Shown: positions 8,952 through 63,137, counted from the stretch's first letter. The stretch is DNA of 64,000 nt from Mucilaginibacter sp. (GCF_025362475.1 NZ_JANYGH010000024.1:2164-66163), one strand, 5' to 3'. A program made the numbers and translations. Notes: a model not told the origin generated them from the sequence alone.

Positions 8952-9914
8952 ATGCTCGATATACTCATCATAGGTGGTGGCCCTATAGGCTTAGCTTGCG
9001 GACTTGCAGCACAAAAAGAAGGTTTAAGTTTTGTTATTATTGAAAAAGGCTGCCTGGTCAACTCACTGTACAATTACCCTTCAACCATGACATTCTTCTC
9101 CACATCAGAAAAACTGGAGATTGGCGGAGTGCCATTTGTAACTGTACATAATAAACCAACCCGTAATGATGCACTTGAATATTATCGCAGGGTGGCCCTA
9201 TCAAACCACTTACCCCTTAATTTATTTGAAGAAGTTACCAATGTAAAAGCCGAAGACAGCGGTTATACCATCACCACCAGCAAAGCAACTTACCATGCAA
9301 AAAAAGTGATTGTATCAACCGGCTTTTATGATATCCCTGTTAAGCTCAACATTACAGGTGAAGACCTGCCCAAAGTGAAACATTATTACTACGATCCGCA
9401 TTATTACACATCGCAAAAAGTAGTGGTTGTGGGTTCAAGCAATTCAGCAATAGATGTGGCTTTAGAAACCTACCGCAAGGGTGCCGAAGTAACGCTTGTA
9501 GTGCGTGGCCCGGAGATCAGCAGCAGGGTTAAATACTGGGTAAGGCCAGATATCATTAACCGGATAAAGGAAGGTAGCATCAAAGCATACTTTCACTCCA
9601 ACCTGGAAGCGGTACGGGAGCACGAGGTGGATATAAATACACCCGATGGCCTGATCACCATTCCTAATGATTTTGTGATGGCCATGACAGGTTATAAACC
9701 CAATTTTGATTTCCTAAAAAAGTTGGGCATCATTTTATCCGAAGACAAGTGCATCCCACAATATAATCACCAAACTATGGAAACCAATTTACCGGGCCTA
9801 TACCTTGCCGGTGTAGTTTGTGGTGGAATGGATACTCATTTATGGTTTATTGAAAACTCGCGCATTCATGCGGATATGATCCTGAATGATATTGTGCAAA
9901 AAGTGAATAGTTGA
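8952..9914 (+). CDS. ypdA: YpdA-family putative bacillithiol disulfide reductase
   Basis: GGGPIG, EKGCLVNSLYNYP, FFSTSEKLEIG, WFIENSRIHA. Confidence 0.9.
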   Translation: MLDILIIGGGPIGLACGLAAQKEGLSFVIIEKGCLVNSLYNYPSTMTFFSTSEKLEIGGVPFVTVHNKPTRNDALEYYRRVALSNHLPLNLFEEVTNVKAEDSGYTITTSKATYHAKKVIVSTGFYDIPVKLNITGEDLPKVKHYYYDPHYYTSQKVVVVGSSNSAIDVALETYRKGAEVTLVVRGPEISSRVKYWVRPDIINRIKEGSIKAYFHSNLEAVREHEVDINTPDGLITIPNDFVMAMTGYKPNFDFLKKLGIILSEDKCIPQYNHQTMETNLPGLYLAGVVCGGMDTHLWFIENSRIHADMILNDIVQKVNS

Positions 9915-9989
9915 TTAAGTGAAGCTTATTTCAGTTGTTTGCAGTTGCATTTGCAGCATTAAAGAGTCTTCTTAAAATGCCGTAATTAA

Positions 9990-10023
9990 TCTTCAAACTT
10001 TCAAATTCTCAAACCTTCAAATT
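9990..10023 (+). repeat. Tandem octamer repeat (YYTTCAAA-like x4)
   Basis: TCTTCAAA CTTTCAAA TTCTCAAA CCTTCAAA; single arm. Confidence 0.5.
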
Positions 10024-10118
10024 AACTTCCATCAACTAAATCATTTTTTTCTTGTATAAGTAAAAATTTATGCGATAATTTGCACCCAAATTAAAAACAC
10101 AGTAATACAATCGAAAAA

Positions 10119-10244
10119 ATGAATCAACCAAGCTTAAATAAGCCCGCAATAAGAGCAACATTTGCTCCGGTTGCCGCTGCTTTGGGTTCAACTGTTTTTT
10201 TATGCTGCCCTCCCCGACGAAGGCCCTATATGCCACGGGTTTGA
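10119..10244 (+). CDS. Putative arginine-responsive leader peptide (41 aa)
   Basis: MNQPSLNKPAIRATFAPVAAALGSTVFLCCPPRRRPYMPRV; CGA CGA AGG run plus CGG, 115 nt before the arg operon; below ORF-track cutoff. Confidence 0.6.
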   Translation: MNQPSLNKPAIRATFAPVAAALGSTVFLCCPPRRRPYMPRV

Positions 10245-51632: not shown

Positions 51633-51948
51633 CGTTTAATCATTATAATAAGGAAAAATTAATTGGTTTAGGAGCTTATTAGTAACAGATTACCTACAGA
51701 TGCCTTGCCATTTTAAATAGCCAATAAAATTTTCCAAATATAGGAATTTCATCCTTATTCATTTTTTAAAATAAGTTCAAATAAAAGTAAAATCAATTAC
51801 AAACGATTGCGTTGTGTGATAAACAATTGAAAATAAATAACATATACCTACATCACAAAATAAGCGCTGCCGGTCATAAACACTTTTACACGCAGTTTAA
51901 AGAATGAACTGAAGTATTTTTATAGATAATGGTATAAGGGAAATACTT

Positions 51949-52422
51949 TTATAAATGTACAGGATAAGCGGTTTCCTGCTTTGTTTCCGACAATACAAAA
52001 AAGCTTTGCATATTCAATACATCAGGCAACCCTGTTAGCTTTGTCATGAGCAATACATTATATTCGTTCATATCACTTATGGCTATCCGGAGTAAAAAAT
52101 CAAAGTTCCCGGTCATATGGTAGCATTCCATAATTTCGGGCAACTTAACCACCTCCAGCTGAAAGGCCAGCAAAGCATCCCGGGAGTGCTCTTTTAACTG
52201 TACGTGGGTATAAGCGATAAGCCCGCGGCCAACCTTTTTAGGATCAACAATGGCCACATAGCGCTTGATGTATCCTTCATCCTCCAGGCGCTTTATCCGC
52301 AGATGGATGGGCGTAACACTTTTGTGCAGCAGGTAGCCTATTTCTTTATGCGTTATTTGCGCATCCTTCTGCAATAATTCTATAATAGCAACATCTGTAT
52401 CGTCAAGTTGATTGTTCTGCAT
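51949..52422 (-). CDS. Lrp/AsnC-family regulator
   Basis: LQKDAQITHKEIG, RIKRLEDEGYI, ECYHMTGNFDFLL. Confidence 0.93.
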   Translation of the reverse strand: MQNNQLDDTDVAIIELLQKDAQITHKEIGYLLHKSVTPIHLRIKRLEDEGYIKRYVAIVDPKKVGRGLIAYTHVQLKEHSRDALLAFQLEVVKLPEIMECYHMTGNFDFLLRIAISDMNEYNVLLMTKLTGLPDVLNMQSFFVLSETKQETAYPVHL

Positions 52423-52433
52423 GGAAATATAAG

Positions 52434-53480
52434 CTATACTTTAATTAAAAATGGTTCAGCTTCATTAAAAGAAAGTACACCCGCTTCCAGCATAAAGTGC
52501 TCGGCCTGTTTTACCATATTTACCGAACCAATAAAAATTGGTGAACGCTGGTGTAGTTCCATTACATCAAGCTCCAAAATCCTGTAGTTGCCATTAGTTG
52601 CCCTACCCCCAGCCTGTTCTATAATAAATGCCATTGGGTTACACTCATAAACCAGCCGTAGTTTGCCATTGGGAGCGGCGGCGGTAACCGGGTAAATAAA
52701 GATGCCTCCCTTAATGAGGTTACGGTGCAGATCGGCCACCATGGAACCGATGTACCTTGAGGTGTAGGGCCGTTTAGTACTTTTATCCTCCACCTGGCAG
52801 TACTTAATGTATTGCTTTACCCCTTTAGGAAAATGCACATAATTCCCTTCGTTAATGGAGTAAATGAAACCATCTTCGGGGATCTGCAAGTTGGGGTGCG
52901 ATAAGCAAAACTCACCAATGGATGGATCAAGGGTAAAGCCATTAACGCCTTTTCCCGTAGTGTAAACCAACATGGTTGATGAGCCGTAAATTACATAGCC
53001 TGCCGCCACCTGGGCCGTACCCGACTGCAGTACATCAGCCAGCGTGGCAGGCCCCTCCTGCGATAATCTGCGGTAAATTGAAAAAATAGTACCTATGGGC
53101 ACATTTACATCAATATTAGAAGAACCATCCAAAGGATCAATGGCCACAATATATTTGGCGTTATTTGCCACCGCCGCATCTATCCTGATGATATCTTCAT
53201 TTTCTTCTGATGCTACTATGCAACATTCGCCACCGCTCGCCAGTGCAGATATGAATTGCTCATTGGCAAAAACATCCAGTTTCTGCTGACTTTCTCCCTG
53301 GATATTTATGCTCCCGGCTTGCCCCAGGATATCCATCAGGCCCGCTTTGTTCACCTCTCTGTTGACAATCTTAGCCGCGATTCCAATGTCGCGCAGCAGC
53401 CTGGAAAGCTCTCCTTTGGCGTACGGAAAATCGGCCTGTTTTTCAATAATAAACTGGCCCAAAGTTTTAACTATCGGCAT
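52434..53480 (-). CDS. fbp: Class I fructose-1,6-bisphosphatase
   Basis: [39 protein letters not shown]. Confidence 0.95.
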
Positions 53481-53861
53481 ATACTTAGTGTAAAGTTTAC
53501 GTTTTAAATAATAATAATTGGTGCTTCCAAGTTAAGTACTTAAATCCTTAAAAAACAACATTTAAGTATAATTTTTTTATAAATCGTCAAAATATGCGCA
53601 TTATGCAAAAGATACTAAGTGTAAAATAGGCCAATTTTCAAACCTGTTATTTTGACATTAAACAGCGGGCAATAGCCGTTTTTTTTAAAAGCGATACAAA
53701 TTGCCCCTTCTTTTAATCTTATCAATCACCAATTGCTGCATTTTTAGTTCTTTTTTCTAAATACTGCCAATCCTATAGTTTCAGAAACTAAATACACCAA
53801 CCTTTACAGTATTCAGGATGACCAACATCCTCAGCTAACCAATTATAACAATTATAAACCA

Positions 53862-54872
53862 ATGAAGCCTGTAAAAATCCTGGTGATTGGTGCCTGCGGA
53901 CAGATCGGCACCGAACTGACCCGTGCCTTAAGATTAAGATATGGCAGTAACAATGTCATTGCGGCCGACCGTTTTTTCCGTAGTACGGATGATGGTCTTT
54001 ACCGGCAACTGGATGTTTTAAATATTGACGCATTAACGCATCTCATCCGCGAGGAGCATATAACGCAGATATACCTATTGGCTGCCATGCTCTCGGCAAG
54101 CAGTGAGCAACATATCCATACCGCGTGGGAGCTTAACATGAATGGCCTGCTAAATGTGCTTAAAGTAGCGGCTTCCCAAAAGCTGGACAAAGTTTTCTGG
54201 CCAAGCAGCATTGCCGTATTTGGCCCCGGATCTCCTAAACACCTTTGCCCGCAGGAACCAACTACAGAACCAAACACGGTTTATGGGATCAGTAAACGGG
54301 CGGGCGAGTACTGGTGCCAGTATTATTTTGATAAATACGGACTTGATGTACGCAGTCTCCGCTATCCCGGTCTTATCTCTTACTCATCGCCTCCGGGCGG
54401 CGGCACCACCGATTACGCGGTTGATATATTTTACCAGGCCGTTGAAAAAGGCCATTATACCTGTTTCCTGCAGGAGGACGCCTGCCTGCCGATGATGTAC
54501 ATGCCCGATGCTGTGCGCGCCGCGATAGAGTTGATGGAAGCTCCCGCCGAACAGATTAAAATACGCACCTCCTATAATCTTTCCGCATTAAGCTTTTCAC
54601 CATGCGATTTAGCCGCAGCAATTCAAAAATACATACCGGCTTTAGAGGTTACGTACCAGCCCGATAGCCGGCAGGCTATTGCAAGTAGCTGGCCGGCCAG
54701 TGTTAATGACCAATGCGCCCGCACCGATTGGGCCTGGCAGTCACGGTTTGATCTTAATATGATGGTAAGAGATATGCTAAAAAACCTGAAACACAAAAAA
54801 AAGGCAACTGAAGCAGCGCAGATCTGGCTCAACGATGATAATTGTGTTTTTACAAGAATAGATGAAGCATGA
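53862..54872 (+). CDS. tdh: SDR-type L-threonine 3-dehydrogenase (NAD-dependent epimerase family)
   Basis: GACGQIGTEL, PSSIAVFG, YGISK, GGGTTDYAVDIF, PMMYMPDA. Confidence 0.8.
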   Translation: MKPVKILVIGACGQIGTELTRALRLRYGSNNVIAADRFFRSTDDGLYRQLDVLNIDALTHLIREEHITQIYLLAAMLSASSEQHIHTAWELNMNGLLNVLKVAASQKLDKVFWPSSIAVFGPGSPKHLCPQEPTTEPNTVYGISKRAGEYWCQYYFDKYGLDVRSLRYPGLISYSSPPGGGTTDYAVDIFYQAVEKGHYTCFLQEDACLPMMYMPDAVRAAIELMEAPAEQIKIRTSYNLSALSFSPCDLAAAIQKYIPALEVTYQPDSRQAIASSWPASVNDQCARTDWAWQSRFDLNMMVRDMLKNLKHKKKATEAAQIWLNDDNCVFTRIDEA

Positions 54873-55705
54873 GAGAACTGCAAATAACCCAAACCATTAC
54901 CAACCGGGAAACCCGCGCGGTAGAAACCTATCTTCAGGAACTTGGCAAAGTGAACCTCATCAGCTCTGAGGAAGAGGTAACGCTAGCCAAACAAGTGAGG
55001 CAGGGAGATAAGGCAGCACTTGACAGGTTGGTTAAAACCAACCTGCGTTTCGTAGTTTCTGTAGCCAAAAAGTACCAGCATCAGGGTATGCCCCTATGCG
55101 ACCTGATTAGCGAGGGCAACCTTGGCCTAACCAAAGCGGCCAAAAAGTTCGACGAAACCAGGGGCTTTAAATTCATCTCTTTCGCGGTATGGTGGATAAG
55201 GCAGAGTATCCTTGCGGCCCTTACAGAAAACTCACGCATGATAAGGTTACCGATGAACAAGATTCACGATATATCAAAAATCAACAAAGCGATGGCCGTG
55301 GTTGAACAGGAAACCTTACGCAAACCTTCTGCAGAACAGATTGCCGAATACCTGGATATATCACCCGAAAAAGTTAATGAAGCTTTGTCTGTAGCGCCGT
55401 GGATAACCTCACTGGATAAGCCATTTGGGGATGACGATGACTATTCGCCTTATGAGCGGCTTTACGAAAAAGACAACAGAACTGATGCGACCCTTATGGC
55501 AGAGGATGCGTCATTGGAGATAACCATGCTCCTATCCCGTTTAAGCGAACGGGAACGTTCCGTAATCGATATGTCTTTTGGGCTTTCGGGAGATGGAGAA
55601 GTGCCCGCAGCAGAAATAGCCCGGTGTTTGGGACTCAGCAGGGAACGGGTAAGGCAAATCCTGAATGAAGCCCTTTATAAACTACGCAACATAAAATCCA
55701 CATGA
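54869..55705 (+). CDS. RpoD/SigA-type sigma-70 factor, divergent paralogue
   Basis: ITNRET, YLQELGK, NLRFVVSVAK, DLISEGNLGL, FDETRGFKFISFAVWWIRQS, LSRERVRQI. Confidence 0.9.
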   Translation: MRELQITQTITNRETRAVETYLQELGKVNLISSEEEVTLAKQVRQGDKAALDRLVKTNLRFVVSVAKKYQHQGMPLCDLISEGNLGLTKAAKKFDETRGFKFISFAVWWIRQSILAALTENSRMIRLPMNKIHDISKINKAMAVVEQETLRKPSAEQIAEYLDISPEKVNEALSVAPWITSLDKPFGDDDDYSPYERLYEKDNRTDATLMAEDASLEITMLLSRLSERERSVIDMSFGLSGDGEVPAAEIARCLGLSRERVRQILNEALYKLRNIKST

Positions 55706-57276
55706 AAAAGGTAAATGATATTGTTCAGAACCTATCACTGAAAAACAGGATTAATTACCAGTTGCCAACTGCAAAATTGGTGGAACAATGCCTGCAAAGG
55801 CAGGAAGGCGTATTAAATGATACAGGGGCCCTGGTGATATGTACCGGTGAGTTTACCGGCCGCAGTCCGGCTGATAAGTTCATTGTGAAAGATACACTGA
55901 CGGATAAAACGGTTAACTGGAATAAATTCAACAATCCAATATCTGAGGCATCTTTTCTAATTCTCCGCCGGGATATGACTGCCTACCTCAACCAGCAAGC
56001 CGAGGTATGGGTAAGGGACGGCTACGCCTGCGCCAACCCTGCATTTCAAATCAGCATCCGGATAGTAAATGAATGCCCTTCATCAAACCACTTTGCAGCT
56101 AACATGTTTATTGCGCCGGTTGCTGATGAGCTGAAAACCCTGCAACCCGACTGGACCATCATCCAGGCTGCCGGCTTTAAAGCAAACCCTGCAAAGCATG
56201 GCACCAGGCAAGGCAATTTCACCATTGTTTCCTTTACCCATAAAACCATCCTTATAGGCGGTACCGGGTATACCGGCGAAATCAAAAAAGCTGTATTTAC
56301 CGTGCTTAATTTTATTTTACCTGTTAATCACCGGGTGTTAAGCATGCACTGCAGCGCCAATGAAGGGCCGGAAGGCGACACCGCCCTGTTTTTCGGCTTA
56401 AGCGGAACCGGTAAAACAACGCTAAGTTCAGACCCATCCCGCAGACTGATAGGTGATGACGAACATGGCTGGGATGATACGGGTATTTTTAATTTTGAAG
56501 GGGGCTGCTATGCAAAAGTCATTAACCTTTCCGAAGAGCATGAGCCGGATATTTACCGGGCTATCCGCAAAGGGGCATTGGTTGAGAATACCTGTTTTAC
56601 CAGCGATACTAACCGGATTGATTTTGCAAACAAAACGATCACTGAAAATACAAGGGTAAGTTATCCATTAAATTTTATACCAAATACCAAAGCTCCTGCC
56701 CTATCCGGCATCCCCCAAAACGTGTTCTTTCTTACCTGCGATGCCTATGGTGTATTCCCGCCGGTGAGCAGACTAACCCATGAGCAGGCCATGTATTATT
56801 TTATCAGTGGATACACAGCCAAAGTTGCCGGTACAGAAGAAGGAGTAAAAGAACCGCAGGTTACTTTTAGCACCTGTTTTGGCGCACCTTTTTTGCCACT
56901 GCACCCTAACCTTTATGCCTCACTGCTGCAGGAGAAACTCGAAAAACATCAAACCAAAGTATGGATGATAAACACCGGCTGGTCTGGCGGACCTTATGGA
57001 ACCGGTAGCAGGATAAGCCTGGCATACACCCGGGCAATGATCTCTGCCGTTCTCGCTGGGCAACTGGAGAAGGTAGCTTACCGCTCGCACCAGGTTTTTG
57101 GTGTTTTTATTCCTGAAAGCTGTCCCGGCGTTCCTTCTGCTATTTTGAACCCAAGAGATACCTGGGCAAACAAACAGGATTACGATTTTATTGCGGGCAG
57201 ATTGGCCGATAAGTTCAGGGAGAATTTTAAACCATACCAGGATCAGTTACCCTCATCATTGGCGCATGCTATGTAA
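55702..57276 (+). CDS. pckA: PEP carboxykinase (ATP)
   Basis: TGRSPADKF, YTGEIKK, SMHCSAN, GLSGTGKTTLS, GDDEHGW, NFEGGCYAK, NTGWSGG. Confidence 0.96.
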   Translation: MKKVNDIVQNLSLKNRINYQLPTAKLVEQCLQRQEGVLNDTGALVICTGEFTGRSPADKFIVKDTLTDKTVNWNKFNNPISEASFLILRRDMTAYLNQQAEVWVRDGYACANPAFQISIRIVNECPSSNHFAANMFIAPVADELKTLQPDWTIIQAAGFKANPAKHGTRQGNFTIVSFTHKTILIGGTGYTGEIKKAVFTVLNFILPVNHRVLSMHCSANEGPEGDTALFFGLSGTGKTTLSSDPSRRLIGDDEHGWDDTGIFNFEGGCYAKVINLSEEHEPDIYRAIRKGALVENTCFTSDTNRIDFANKTITENTRVSYPLNFIPNTKAPALSGIPQNVFFLTCDAYGVFPPVSRLTHEQAMYYFISGYTAKVAGTEEGVKEPQVTFSTCFGAPFLPLHPNLYASLLQEKLEKHQTKVWMINTGWSGGPYGTGSRISLAYTRAMISAVLAGQLEKVAYRSHQVFGVFIPESCPGVPSAILNPRDTWANKQDYDFIAGRLADKFRENFKPYQDQLPSSLAHAM

Positions 57277-57329
57277 AGCATATACAAATTAACTGCGGCC
57301 CGGCCGTTGTTTACTAATTGATAATGATT

Positions 57330-57695
57330 TTAAAATGTCCGTCTTGGACGTTTTTTCTTTACAGAACCGTCTGGCTTCTCCACTTTGTGATAACCGGGTG
57401 ATTCAAAAGAGGGTTTGCTTGCAACAGGCGATGGCTTTTGCGCAGACGCTCTTTTATCCTCGGCTATCCTCACACTGAGCTGCCTGGTTTCTATCTCCAT
57501 ACCGTCAAAAGCGGCGATAGCCCTGTCTGCACCCGCCTGATCGGTCATATGAACAAAGGCATAGCCCTTGCTTTCACCTGTATCTATATCCGTAACAATC
57601 TTCACCATTTCTACCTGGCCTTCAGCCATAAACAACTCCAGCAGTGCAATTTCCTGCATAGTTCGTGGTATACCCACAACAAATAATTTTACCAT
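57330..57695 (-). CDS. RRM-domain RNA-binding protein
   Basis: RNP2 KLFVVGI, RNP1 KGYAFVHM, basic tail KKKRPRR. Confidence 0.9.
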   Translation of the reverse strand: MVKLFVVGIPRTMQEIALLELFMAEGQVEMVKIVTDIDTGESKGYAFVHMTDQAGADRAIAAFDGMEIETRQLSVRIAEDKRASAQKPSPVASKPSFESPGYHKVEKPDGSVKKKRPRRTF

Positions 57696-57838
57696 ATTAT
57701 AATTTTAGGTATTTTACCATATAAATCTACTCAAATAACGGAGAATAGTTTCCGGCAGTCAGAAATTGTGCAACGTGCACACCCCTTTTGCCTTTTAGCA
57801 CATGTATACCAAAACATGTTTTTAAAAAAATTCACCGT

Positions 57839-58896: not shown

Positions 58897-59169
58897 ATGT
58901 CTGCAGATAATTCCATTTCACCCGTTCAAGCTGACCTTGTCCAAATTATTTCTAAATATATTTTACTTGAAGAAAGCCGCAAACACTTAAAAGGGCGGTG
59001 CCCCTTTCATAAGGACCTGGCAACCTCATTAATGGTTTCTCCTGATAAAAATATTTTTCAATGCTTTGGCTGCGGCAAAGGTGGTGGCCCCGTTGAGTTT
59101 GTAATGGCAATAGAAAATAAAACACGCGAAGAAGCGATACATCTTATCGCCACACAAAAACCTTTTTAA
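58897..59169 (+). CDS. Stand-alone CHC2 zinc-finger (DnaG ZBD-like) protein
   Basis: CPFH...CFGC, GGGPVEFVMAIEN; stop after 90 aa, no TOPRIM continuation. Confidence 0.8.
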   Translation: MSADNSISPVQADLVQIISKYILLEESRKHLKGRCPFHKDLATSLMVSPDKNIFQCFGCGKGGGPVEFVMAIENKTREEAIHLIATQKPF

Positions 59170-63000: not shown

Positions 63001-63137
63001 TACTGCCGCCCTTTGCGGCAGTAGCCTTCACTTCTAATTTTACCCCCTGATTATATAACCGGATGGCGCTTGCTATCAAAACAAATGGGGGCCGGTAAAG
63101 CCTTGTAAATTTTACCAGATTTAACATAATAACCTAT

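Follow-up and report, generated by a model that had tools for sequence, protein, structure and literature searches.

Why would a bacterium place the gene of a primary-like sigma factor between those of two metabolic enzymes, coupled to both by stop/start overlaps? The question is raised by a five-gene block in a 64,000-nt stretch of DNA from Mucilaginibacter sp. (GCF_025362475.1 NZ_JANYGH010000024.1:2164-66163), which is contig C71 of a 6.45-Mb genome and is hereafter called the window. In this block, the genes of an Lrp/AsnC-family regulator (lrp) and a class 1 fructose-1,6-bisphosphatase (fbp) are divergent from those of an L-threonine 3-dehydrogenase (tdh), a sigma-70-type factor and an ATP-dependent phosphoenolpyruvate (PEP) carboxykinase (pckA). 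A sequence-only reading had seen here a self-contained module for turning amino acids into sugar, with its own Lrp and its own sigma factor. We find that the block is one form of a conserved, genus-restricted unit, in which tdh and the gene of a primary-like alternative sigma factor are linked, almost always opposite a gene of the Lrp family. Its function is probably that of an Lrp-controlled amino-acid/gluconeogenesis switch that makes its own primary-like alternative sigma factor. Of the earlier interpretation, the unit with a sigma factor of its own is retained here, whereas the constant partners, the identification of Lrp proper and the self-containment are corrected.

Conservation of the tdh–sigma unit

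We collected loci from contigs that encode close homologues of the window's sigma factor and from regions of the genus's species genomes. All five open reading frames (ORFs) lie where they had been placed, lrp and fbp divergent from tdh, sigma and pckA, and the letters ATGA stand exactly at both of the overlaps that had been claimed (Table 1). A survey of gene order had been set beforehand as the refuting test. All five genes are found in the same order in six more genomes or contigs, and the core is more widespread, so that the objection of an unconserved gene order fails. Loci with this layout (type A) are found in the window, two metagenome contigs, Mucilaginibacter sp. SMC90, M. aquaedulcis and two further genomes, G071 and G050. 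One of the metagenome contigs, L029, has the same flanks as the window and encodes a sigma factor 82% identical to the window's; the flanks otherwise differ between genomes that carry the full type A layout.

The other layouts keep the core and exchange its partners. In type B (six loci), fbp and lrp are divergent from a serC paralogue, a DUF1015 gene, tdh and sigma, in that order. Type C (six loci) is type B minus fbp and includes M. paludis, where kbl comes directly after the sigma gene. Type D, with lrp opposite tdh and sigma, belongs to the M. rubeus/gossypii group and has conserved flanks. Among the single cases, G044 has fbp and lrp opposite tdh and sigma, and M. corticis has tdh and sigma without lrp. 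In G023 (locus L054), the same functions are joined in an independent arrangement, with fbp and pckA running one way and DUF1015, sigma and lrp the other; here the divergent DUF1015 gene overlaps the start of the gene for a 45%-identical RpoD-like sigma factor by 4 nt (9001-10194 of that locus). A DUF1015 gene recurs as the direct neighbour of these sigma genes.

Throughout these exchanges, tdh is the gene directly preceding sigma in 19 of the 19 main-clade loci and in every type D locus examined. Of 25 locus entries, 14 show the two genes overlapping by 4 nt, and nine more have a spacing of −1 to +12 nt. The sigma/pckA junction of the other type A loci varies from −26 to +164 nt. Nearly every related locus also has a homologue of the lrp-family gene opposite the sigma operon. 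The proposed partnership of the sigma factor is accordingly a conserved unit, but its constants are tdh and the Lrp-family gene, and fbp and pckA are frequent but optional. The proposed theme of gluconeogenesis is likewise present, but within a broader one of Ser/Gly/Thr metabolism plus gluconeogenesis, as the variants with a serC paralogue and DUF1015 gene or with kbl indicate.

A clade profile places 19 of 229 Mucilaginibacter species genomes above the housekeeping level, each with tdh upstream of the sigma gene. The type D sigma factor is found by sigma similarity in 14 of the 229, two of which also carry a type A locus; its tdh junction was checked in two of these 14 genomes by handle and in ten named loci. 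Combined, the carriers of the core amount to 31 of the 229 genomes, about one in seven. When 401 genomes from 37 genera of the family were searched, only Mucilaginibacter exceeded the profile threshold (0 of 36 others), a search in which divergent type D-like sigma factors would be missed, and none of 16 genomes from other families has a tdh gene adjoining a sigma gene. The named close homologues of the sigma factor and all 12 named loci of the species collection are from Mucilaginibacter.

Several loci are informative in other respects. The window's genome holds a decayed paralogous locus (C51:195133-198534), where a serC paralogue and a DUF1015 gene are divergent from a 64%-identical lrp-family gene and a 91-aa fused fbp remnant, without tdh or sigma. 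Mucilaginibacter sp. SMC90 holds two tdh-linked sigma loci, one of type A (L030/L090) and one of type D with the flanks of the M. rubeus group (L101); its type A locus is adjoined by an integrase-family gene and an Arm-DNA-binding gene. In many loci of types B and C (L032, L036, L037, L039, L040, L048 and L050), the sigma gene is followed by ORFs sized as an extracytoplasmic function (ECF) sigma factor, a FecR-type anti-sigma factor, a SusC-like TonB receptor and a SusD-like protein, the domains being assigned in L032 and the other loci matched by ORF size and order. These ORFs suggest that the module is linked to a nutrient-uptake system.

The accessory sigma factor and its shared promoter

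The window's sigma factor contains regions 1.2, 2, 3 and 4 (Pfam r1_2, r2, r3 and r4, each above its cut-off) and has no region 1.1. It is one of three RpoD-like factors in the genome and is 53–54% identical to both of the others, encoded on contigs C74 (286 aa) and C67. The 286-aa type, to which the C74 protein is orthologous, is found with a near-constant score in 226 of the 229 species genomes, and from this distribution we take the C74 protein to be the housekeeping factor. In the tree, the C67 paralogue falls inside a tight housekeeping clade with a support of 100, and the window's sigma factor falls outside it, among tdh-linked sigma factors whose branches are long compared with about 0.02 in the housekeeping group. 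Its scores reach neither the RpoD equivalogs (NF004208, 220.9 vs 555; NF006666, 219.8 vs 572; TIGR02393, 202.7 vs 354) nor the RpoS equivalogs (NF004207, 241 vs 394; TIGR02394, 239.9 vs 378.7), and no homologue above 54% identity was found in 24 sampled congeners.

Genomes of the genus have between one and six RpoD-like matches; accessory primary-like sigma factors are therefore common in Mucilaginibacter, and the window's belongs to a particular lineage among them. The RpoD-type sigma factor that had been read in the block is thus borne out as an accessory paralogue. With regions 1.2 to 4 complete, the WWIRQ and ERVRQ motifs kept and an absence from many related genomes, it has the features of a group 2 sigma factor, and as such it is predicted to bind core RNA polymerase and to transcribe from primary-like promoters.

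We then located the residues that set the lineage apart by comparing 22 tdh-linked sigma factors with 20 housekeeping-type sequences, numbered as in the window's factor. Sigma-A is matched almost completely in regions 2.1–2.3 and in the ERVRQ helix of region 4.2. At residue 105, 16 of 22 tdh-linked factors have F, and all 20 housekeeping-type sequences have Y. At residue 116, the Q of 17 of the 20 housekeeping-type sequences is absent from all 22 tdh-linked factors, which have A, S, F or E instead, and the invariant Q121 is replaced by N, H or K (Q in 0 of 22). Residues 124–125 read MI instead of IV, and residue 266 is N instead of D or E. The invariant R258 is lost in 20 of the 22 and retained in the window copy. 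The tdh-linked lineage, the window copy included, lacks the C-terminal tail. We take residues 115–116 to correspond to T440 and R441 of E. coli sigma-70, near the −12 contact, and residue 258 to R584 of its −35 helix. Under this alignment, the lineage has its own substitutions at positions aligned with the DNA-contacting residues of E. coli sigma-70.

The control region contains a promoter-like arrangement that the loci share. In Bacteroidota, sigma-A promoters have TTTG at −33 and TAnnTTTG at −7 (PMC9723704). Ahead of the operon's first gene, TATAGTTT, a spacer of exactly 17 nt and AAcCTTTaC recur in every one of the 21 loci that have a divergent control region, and the sigma factors of these loci are only 51–82% identical to the window's. 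The second box begins with A or C in each of the 21, and in none with T. In a genome-wide scan with a position weight matrix, the module promoter scores 30.6 and the decayed C51 locus 25.2; three other sites exceed 20 and are doubtful, being antisense or inside ORFs. Because the scan finds nearly the module alone, the motif is specific to it and does not mark a general class of promoters. The two boxes by themselves hold about 18 bits, too little for regulon prediction in a 6.45-Mb genome. The fourth-best match, with a score of 21.9, lies between an araC-type gene and etfB, antisense to araC (63070-63104, minus strand).

Other elements of the control region are conserved to differing degrees. 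The repeats that flank box 1 recur in 21 aligned loci with the consensus CcAAAta ... aCcaAAa (CCAAATA-type, 31 nt apart) and are candidate sites for binding by the Lrp-family protein. Towards fbp, most loci conserve a box beside the start codon of fbp or lrp, and TACACTAAG together with its −7-like box presumably forms a promoter; a second TACACTWAG copy is found at 110–135 nt in loci of types A, B and C. Hairpins of differing sequence occur in the leaders of other loci whose predicted leaders are at least 41 nt long, and none occurs in loci with short leaders. A terminator-like hairpin with a T-run (53664-53680, plus strand) also separates the second TACACTWAG box from the tdh promoter. The closest relative, L029, shares this hairpin and loci further removed do not; its role could be to terminate a short transcript or to insulate one promoter from the other. 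An Rfam scan of the block found no riboswitch and no other known RNA, and a promoter and terminator scan of the region gave site counts not above shuffled expectation, its promoter consensus being that of E. coli sigma-70, which is inapplicable to Bacteroidota.

Table 1. Features of the five-gene block and its control region, in window coordinates
Feature	Coordinates	Strand	Size, basis or remark
Lrp/AsnC-family transcription regulator (lrp)	51949-52422	−	157 aa; Pfam HTH_AsnC-type, HTH_24, AsnC_trans_reg
Class 1 fructose-1,6-bisphosphatase (fbp)	52434-53480	−	348 aa; NCBIfam and Pfam
Divergent control region	53481-53861		381 nt, AT-rich, 28.9% guanine plus cytosine (GC)
TACACTAAG box directly 5′ of the fbp start codon	53484-53492	−	preceded, when read towards fbp, by a TAnnTTT-type −7-like box
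ACCAATTAT-type inverted pair bracketing the control region	53501-53522 and 53838-53859		
Second TACACTWAG box	53615-53623	−	about 130 nt further upstream of fbp than the first
Two CTAAATA direct repeats flanking box 1	53757-53763 and 53788-53794	+	31 nt apart
Box 1, TATAGTTT	53774-53781	+	−33-like element of the tdh-operon promoter
Box 2, AACCTTTAC	53799-53807	+	−7-like element without the canonical first T of TAnnTTTG
6-bp hairpin in the predicted tdh 5′ leader	53815-53831	+	ViennaRNA, −6.5 kcal/mol
L-threonine 3-dehydrogenase (tdh), short-chain dehydrogenase/reductase (SDR) type, UDP-galactose-4-epimerase-like	53862-54872	+	336 aa; PDB matches
ATGA stop/start overlap, tdh/sigma	54869-54872	+	
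Primary-like (group-2-like) alternative sigma-70	54869-55705	+	278 aa; Pfam domains, tree
ATGA stop/start overlap, sigma/pckA	55702-55705	+	
ATP-dependent PEP carboxykinase (pckA)	55702-57276	+	524 aa; TIGR00224, NF006820
Weak terminator-like hairpin 3′ of pckA	57295-57307	+	consensus scan only

Metabolic setting, proposed mechanism and rival explanations

The products of the block were identified from NCBIfam, Pfam and solved structures. The regulator has an AsnC-type helix-turn-helix and a C-terminal AsnC/RAM ligand-binding domain (PF13404, PF13412 and PF01037, all above cut-offs). It had been called the block's own Lrp; we assign it to the Lrp/AsnC family on these domains, but it scores below the Lrp equivalog NF008370 (102 vs 233 bits) and is not assigned to Lrp proper. 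The fbp gene lies upstream of lrp on the same strand with a gap of 11 nt, and its product scores 537.5 bits against the NF006778 cut-off of 368, with both Pfam FBPase domains found. The tdh product is by its sequence an SDR-type L-threonine 3-dehydrogenase of predicted activity. It matches natural threonine dehydrogenases in the PDB (7epr, 2yy7 and 3wmw) at E = 1e-110 to 1e-122, the Flavobacterium enzyme 2yy7 at 2.8e-117 and engineered enzymes at lower values still. Its motifs GACGQIG (GxxGxxG) and YGISK (YxxxK) are intact and conserved across the module's Tdh proteins; a comparison with the core Tdh of congeners, of which extraction was poor, supports motif retention only. PckA scores 685.4 against 590.05 for TIGR00224 and 792.1 against 636 bits for NF006820.

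The module supplements core metabolism and does not replace it. A second fbp gene, 75% identical, lies on contig C73, in addition to the remnant on C51, and the genome has two further copies of tdh and two of RpoD-like sigma genes. The pckA gene, in contrast to fbp, is single-copy; it is 55–62% identical to congener pckA, and about half of the congeners have none. The block had been described as self-contained. This description does not hold, as kbl (contig C46), the second fbp gene and a PpsA/PPDK-type enzyme are all encoded outside it.

The composition of the block and the selection on its genes were also quantified. The impression that it is GC-richer is correct, but the difference is modest: 45.2% compared with a genome mean of 41.3% in 5.3-kb windows (standard deviation 2.2%), a value reached by only 2.3% of such windows. 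The GC content at third codon positions (GC3) of the five genes ranks between the 84th and 94th percentiles of ORFs of at least 300 aa. Between the window and L029, whose sigma factors are 82% identical, the ratio of nonsynonymous to synonymous substitution rates (dN/dS) is 0.035–0.087 across the five genes (fbp 0.035, tdh 0.087, sigma 0.082). All five genes are under purifying selection and are thus maintained by it. A decaying duplicate is ruled out for the sigma gene by its dN/dS of 0.08, and chance adjacency of the block's genes was considered and rejected.

We now turn to the mechanism of the switch that we regard as probable. The Lrp-family protein would bind phased CTAAATA and ACCAATTAT-type sites in the 381-nt control region and, in response to an amino-acid signal, would set transcription from the promoter formed by TATAGTTT, 17 nt and AACCTTTAC. 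Tdh, the sigma factor and PckA would then be translated from a single mRNA. Together with Kbl, whose gene lies elsewhere, Tdh would convert threonine to glycine and acetyl-CoA, and PckA and Fbp would push carbon toward sugar phosphates. The sigma factor would compete with sigma-A for core RNA polymerase and thereby shift global transcription to growth on amino acids with little sugar, or to starvation. As the −7-like box lacks its first T and the sigma factor is substituted at positions aligned with those that read −12, the sigma factor may read its own promoter, which would create positive feedback. The E. coli kbl-tdh operon is regulated by Lrp, and group 2 sigma factors, such as SigE of Synechocystis, control central carbon metabolism.

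Several considerations weigh against such a switch. The core recognition helices, WWIRQ and ERVRQ, are the same as in sigma-A, and a distinct specificity of the sigma factor is at most putative. Sigma residues and promoter boxes showed no pattern of covariation across 22 loci, which include too few independent loci. A motif essentially unique to the module reveals no regulon, and the promoter could simply be one that sigma-A uses with the help of an activator. Co-transcription and induction of the genes are predictions, as is the start of transcription. PckA is able to run in the carboxylating direction in some Bacteroidota. Finally, type A loci do not form a single clade in the tree of sigma factors, and because fbp and pckA are also optional, the link to gluconeogenesis is recurrent and not obligatory. 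Pairs of fbp and pckA occur without tdh or sigma in G012 (L016), where the two genes are divergent, and in G015 (L018), where pckA is divergent from fbp and a following lrp gene, so that fbp-pckA linkage is itself a recurrent theme in the genus. With the non-monophyly of type A, these sigma-less pairs make the window's layout look like the union of two units, one of lrp, fbp and pckA and the other of lrp, tdh and sigma.

Could the block instead be an accessory fitness cassette, with genes transferred and lost together, and with a redundant sigma-A back-up of the same promoter range as its sigma factor, lacking any dedicated logic between sigma factor and enzymes? We consider this unlikely. The patchy distribution (31 of 229 genomes), the varied flanks, the somewhat raised GC content, the identity of only 55–62% between the block's pckA and that of congeners, and recognition helices that are largely those of sigma-A all fit such a cassette, as do the integrase-family and Arm-DNA-binding genes in SMC90 and the Mrr and Fic genes in L034. 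However, co-transfer leaves unexplained why tdh, with its 4-nt overlap, always remains next to the start of the sigma gene when every other partner varies, why a non-canonical promoter with an exact 17-nt spacer is kept across sigma factors of 51–82% identity, and why lineage-specific substitutions lie at DNA-contact-aligned positions. The type D flanks are conserved across many species and therefore look vertical rather than mobile. Hallmarks of mobility are also scarce at the window itself: there is no tRNA gene within the 44–64 kb of the window and no convincing flanking direct repeat, and sp. SMC90 is the one case of an integrase-family gene beside the cluster. An empty-site comparison set no insertion boundary, since the homologues of the neighbouring histidine kinase in the genus (at most 57% identical, in neighbourhoods that share nothing with the window) are likely paralogues.

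A second alternative gives Tdh itself a regulatory role. As a sensor or partner of the sigma factor (a 'trigger enzyme'), Tdh would bind or release it according to the threonine or NAD(H) state and so replace an anti-sigma factor. The invariance of tdh as neighbour, with a stop/start overlap in most loci, agrees with this proposal, and stop/start coupling is often seen between genes whose products form stoichiometric complexes. In loci with domain-annotated neighbours, nothing beside the sigma gene was recognised as anti-sigma-like, the nearby FecR-type genes pair with a neighbouring ECF sigma factor, and other tdh copies are kept in these genomes for plain catabolism. The contact between Tdh and the sigma factor is, however, hypothetical; Tdh keeps all of its catalytic motifs, with no conserved extra domain or tail seen; the G023 sigma gene is overlapped at its start by a DUF1015 gene and not by tdh; and the pair without lrp in M. 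corticis fits simple co-expression equally well. Regulation of the sigma factor by Tdh is therefore rather improbable, and it is a similarly long shot that tdh and sigma form a fixed-ratio, enzyme-gated pair whose sigma factor reads its own T-less −7 box, as a self-amplifying switch for growth on amino acids.

That the window's sigma factor is the housekeeping RpoD/SigA, with incidental metabolic neighbours, is barely conceivable: it has the short architecture of Bacteroidota primary sigma factors, from region 1.2 to region 4, and one source labels its close homologues 'RNA polymerase primary sigma factor', but a separate C74 factor is the orthologue of the type present in 226 of 229 congeners, and the window's factor is patchily distributed, has no homologue above about 54% in 24 congeners, lies outside the housekeeping clade and scores below every RpoD cut-off, so that this identity is refuted.

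Neighbouring genes and relation to known systems

Two genes downstream of the block are of separate interest. Convergent with pckA is the gene of a 121-aa RNA-binding protein with a single RNA recognition motif (RRM; 57330-57695, minus strand), which scores 64 bits against the cut-off of 100 for NCBIfam 'Rbp_regulator' and is of the same general kind as the Bacteroides regulator RbpB (PMC11697453). It adjoins the module only in the window and its closest metagenome relative. An AT-rich inverted pair of 31 nt, 81% complementary (51642-51672 and 57673-57703), which is the sole match between the flanks, brackets the block plus the RRM gene, probably by chance, as the module is present without the RRM gene in other genomes. 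An orphan 90-aa ORF (58897-59169, plus strand) that consists solely of a DnaG-type CHC2 zinc finger (PF01807, 79.5 bits) is also found in L029.

With such a conserved sigma lineage, always wired to tdh and to a regulator of the Lrp family and frequently to the two enzymes of the committed gluconeogenic steps, the switching of carbon sources would gain a level of global regulation in soil bacteria that are abundant and produce polysaccharides. The module comprises a single regulator, promoter and sigma factor in about 5 kb and so offers a compact test case for how metabolic state is passed to RNA polymerase. It also illustrates modular evolution, its core having been recombined with fbp, pckA, serC/DUF1015 or kbl. 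If the specificity of the sigma factor is shifted, the sigma factor and its promoter could become a pair for Bacteroidota genetic tools. The literature searched, of which coverage is incomplete so that absence is not proven, contains no description of a tdh-linked or primary-like alternative sigma factor in Bacteroidota.

The nearest comparison is with group 2 sigma factors, such as RpoS of Proteobacteria, SigB–SigE of cyanobacteria and SigB of actinobacteria. Like these, the window's sigma factor has regions 1.2, 2, 3 and 4, recognition helices near those of the primary sigma factor and a tie, by its gene context, to nutrient state and central carbon metabolism; SigE of cyanobacteria, for example, activates sugar catabolism. 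It also shares with them a presence only in some genomes, and is thus dispensable for the genus. In contrast, none of the factors named above is its orthologue, and it arose within Bacteroidota from the short sigma-A type. None of these group 2 examples is known to be hard-wired into an enzyme operon by stop/start overlaps, as the window's sigma factor is.

Compared with the sigma-A of Bacteroidota, the window's factor has the same short architecture without region 1.1, an identity of 53%, and near-identical regions 2.1–2.3 and ERVRQ motif. It differs from sigma-A in its presence in a minority of genomes, its lack of a C-terminal tail, its much faster evolution and the changes at residues 116, 121, 124–125, 258 and 265–267. 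The sigma sets so far described in Bacteroidota comprise sigma-A, sigma-54 and many ECF sigma factors; in Flavobacterium psychrophilum, the mapped set includes these three kinds only (PMC9723704).

The metabolic genes have counterparts of their own. As with the kbl-tdh operon of E. coli, the module pairs an Lrp-family regulator with a threonine dehydrogenase, and in M. paludis kbl directly follows. Unlike that operon, the module encodes its regulator divergently at the locus, its Tdh is of the SDR type and not a zinc-dependent alcohol dehydrogenase (zinc-ADH), and a sigma gene is embedded in it. Within the genus, the divergent fbp/pckA loci of G012 and G015 join the same two enzymes as the window, in G015 also with an Lrp-family gene, whereas the window alone of the three adds tdh and a sigma factor to them.

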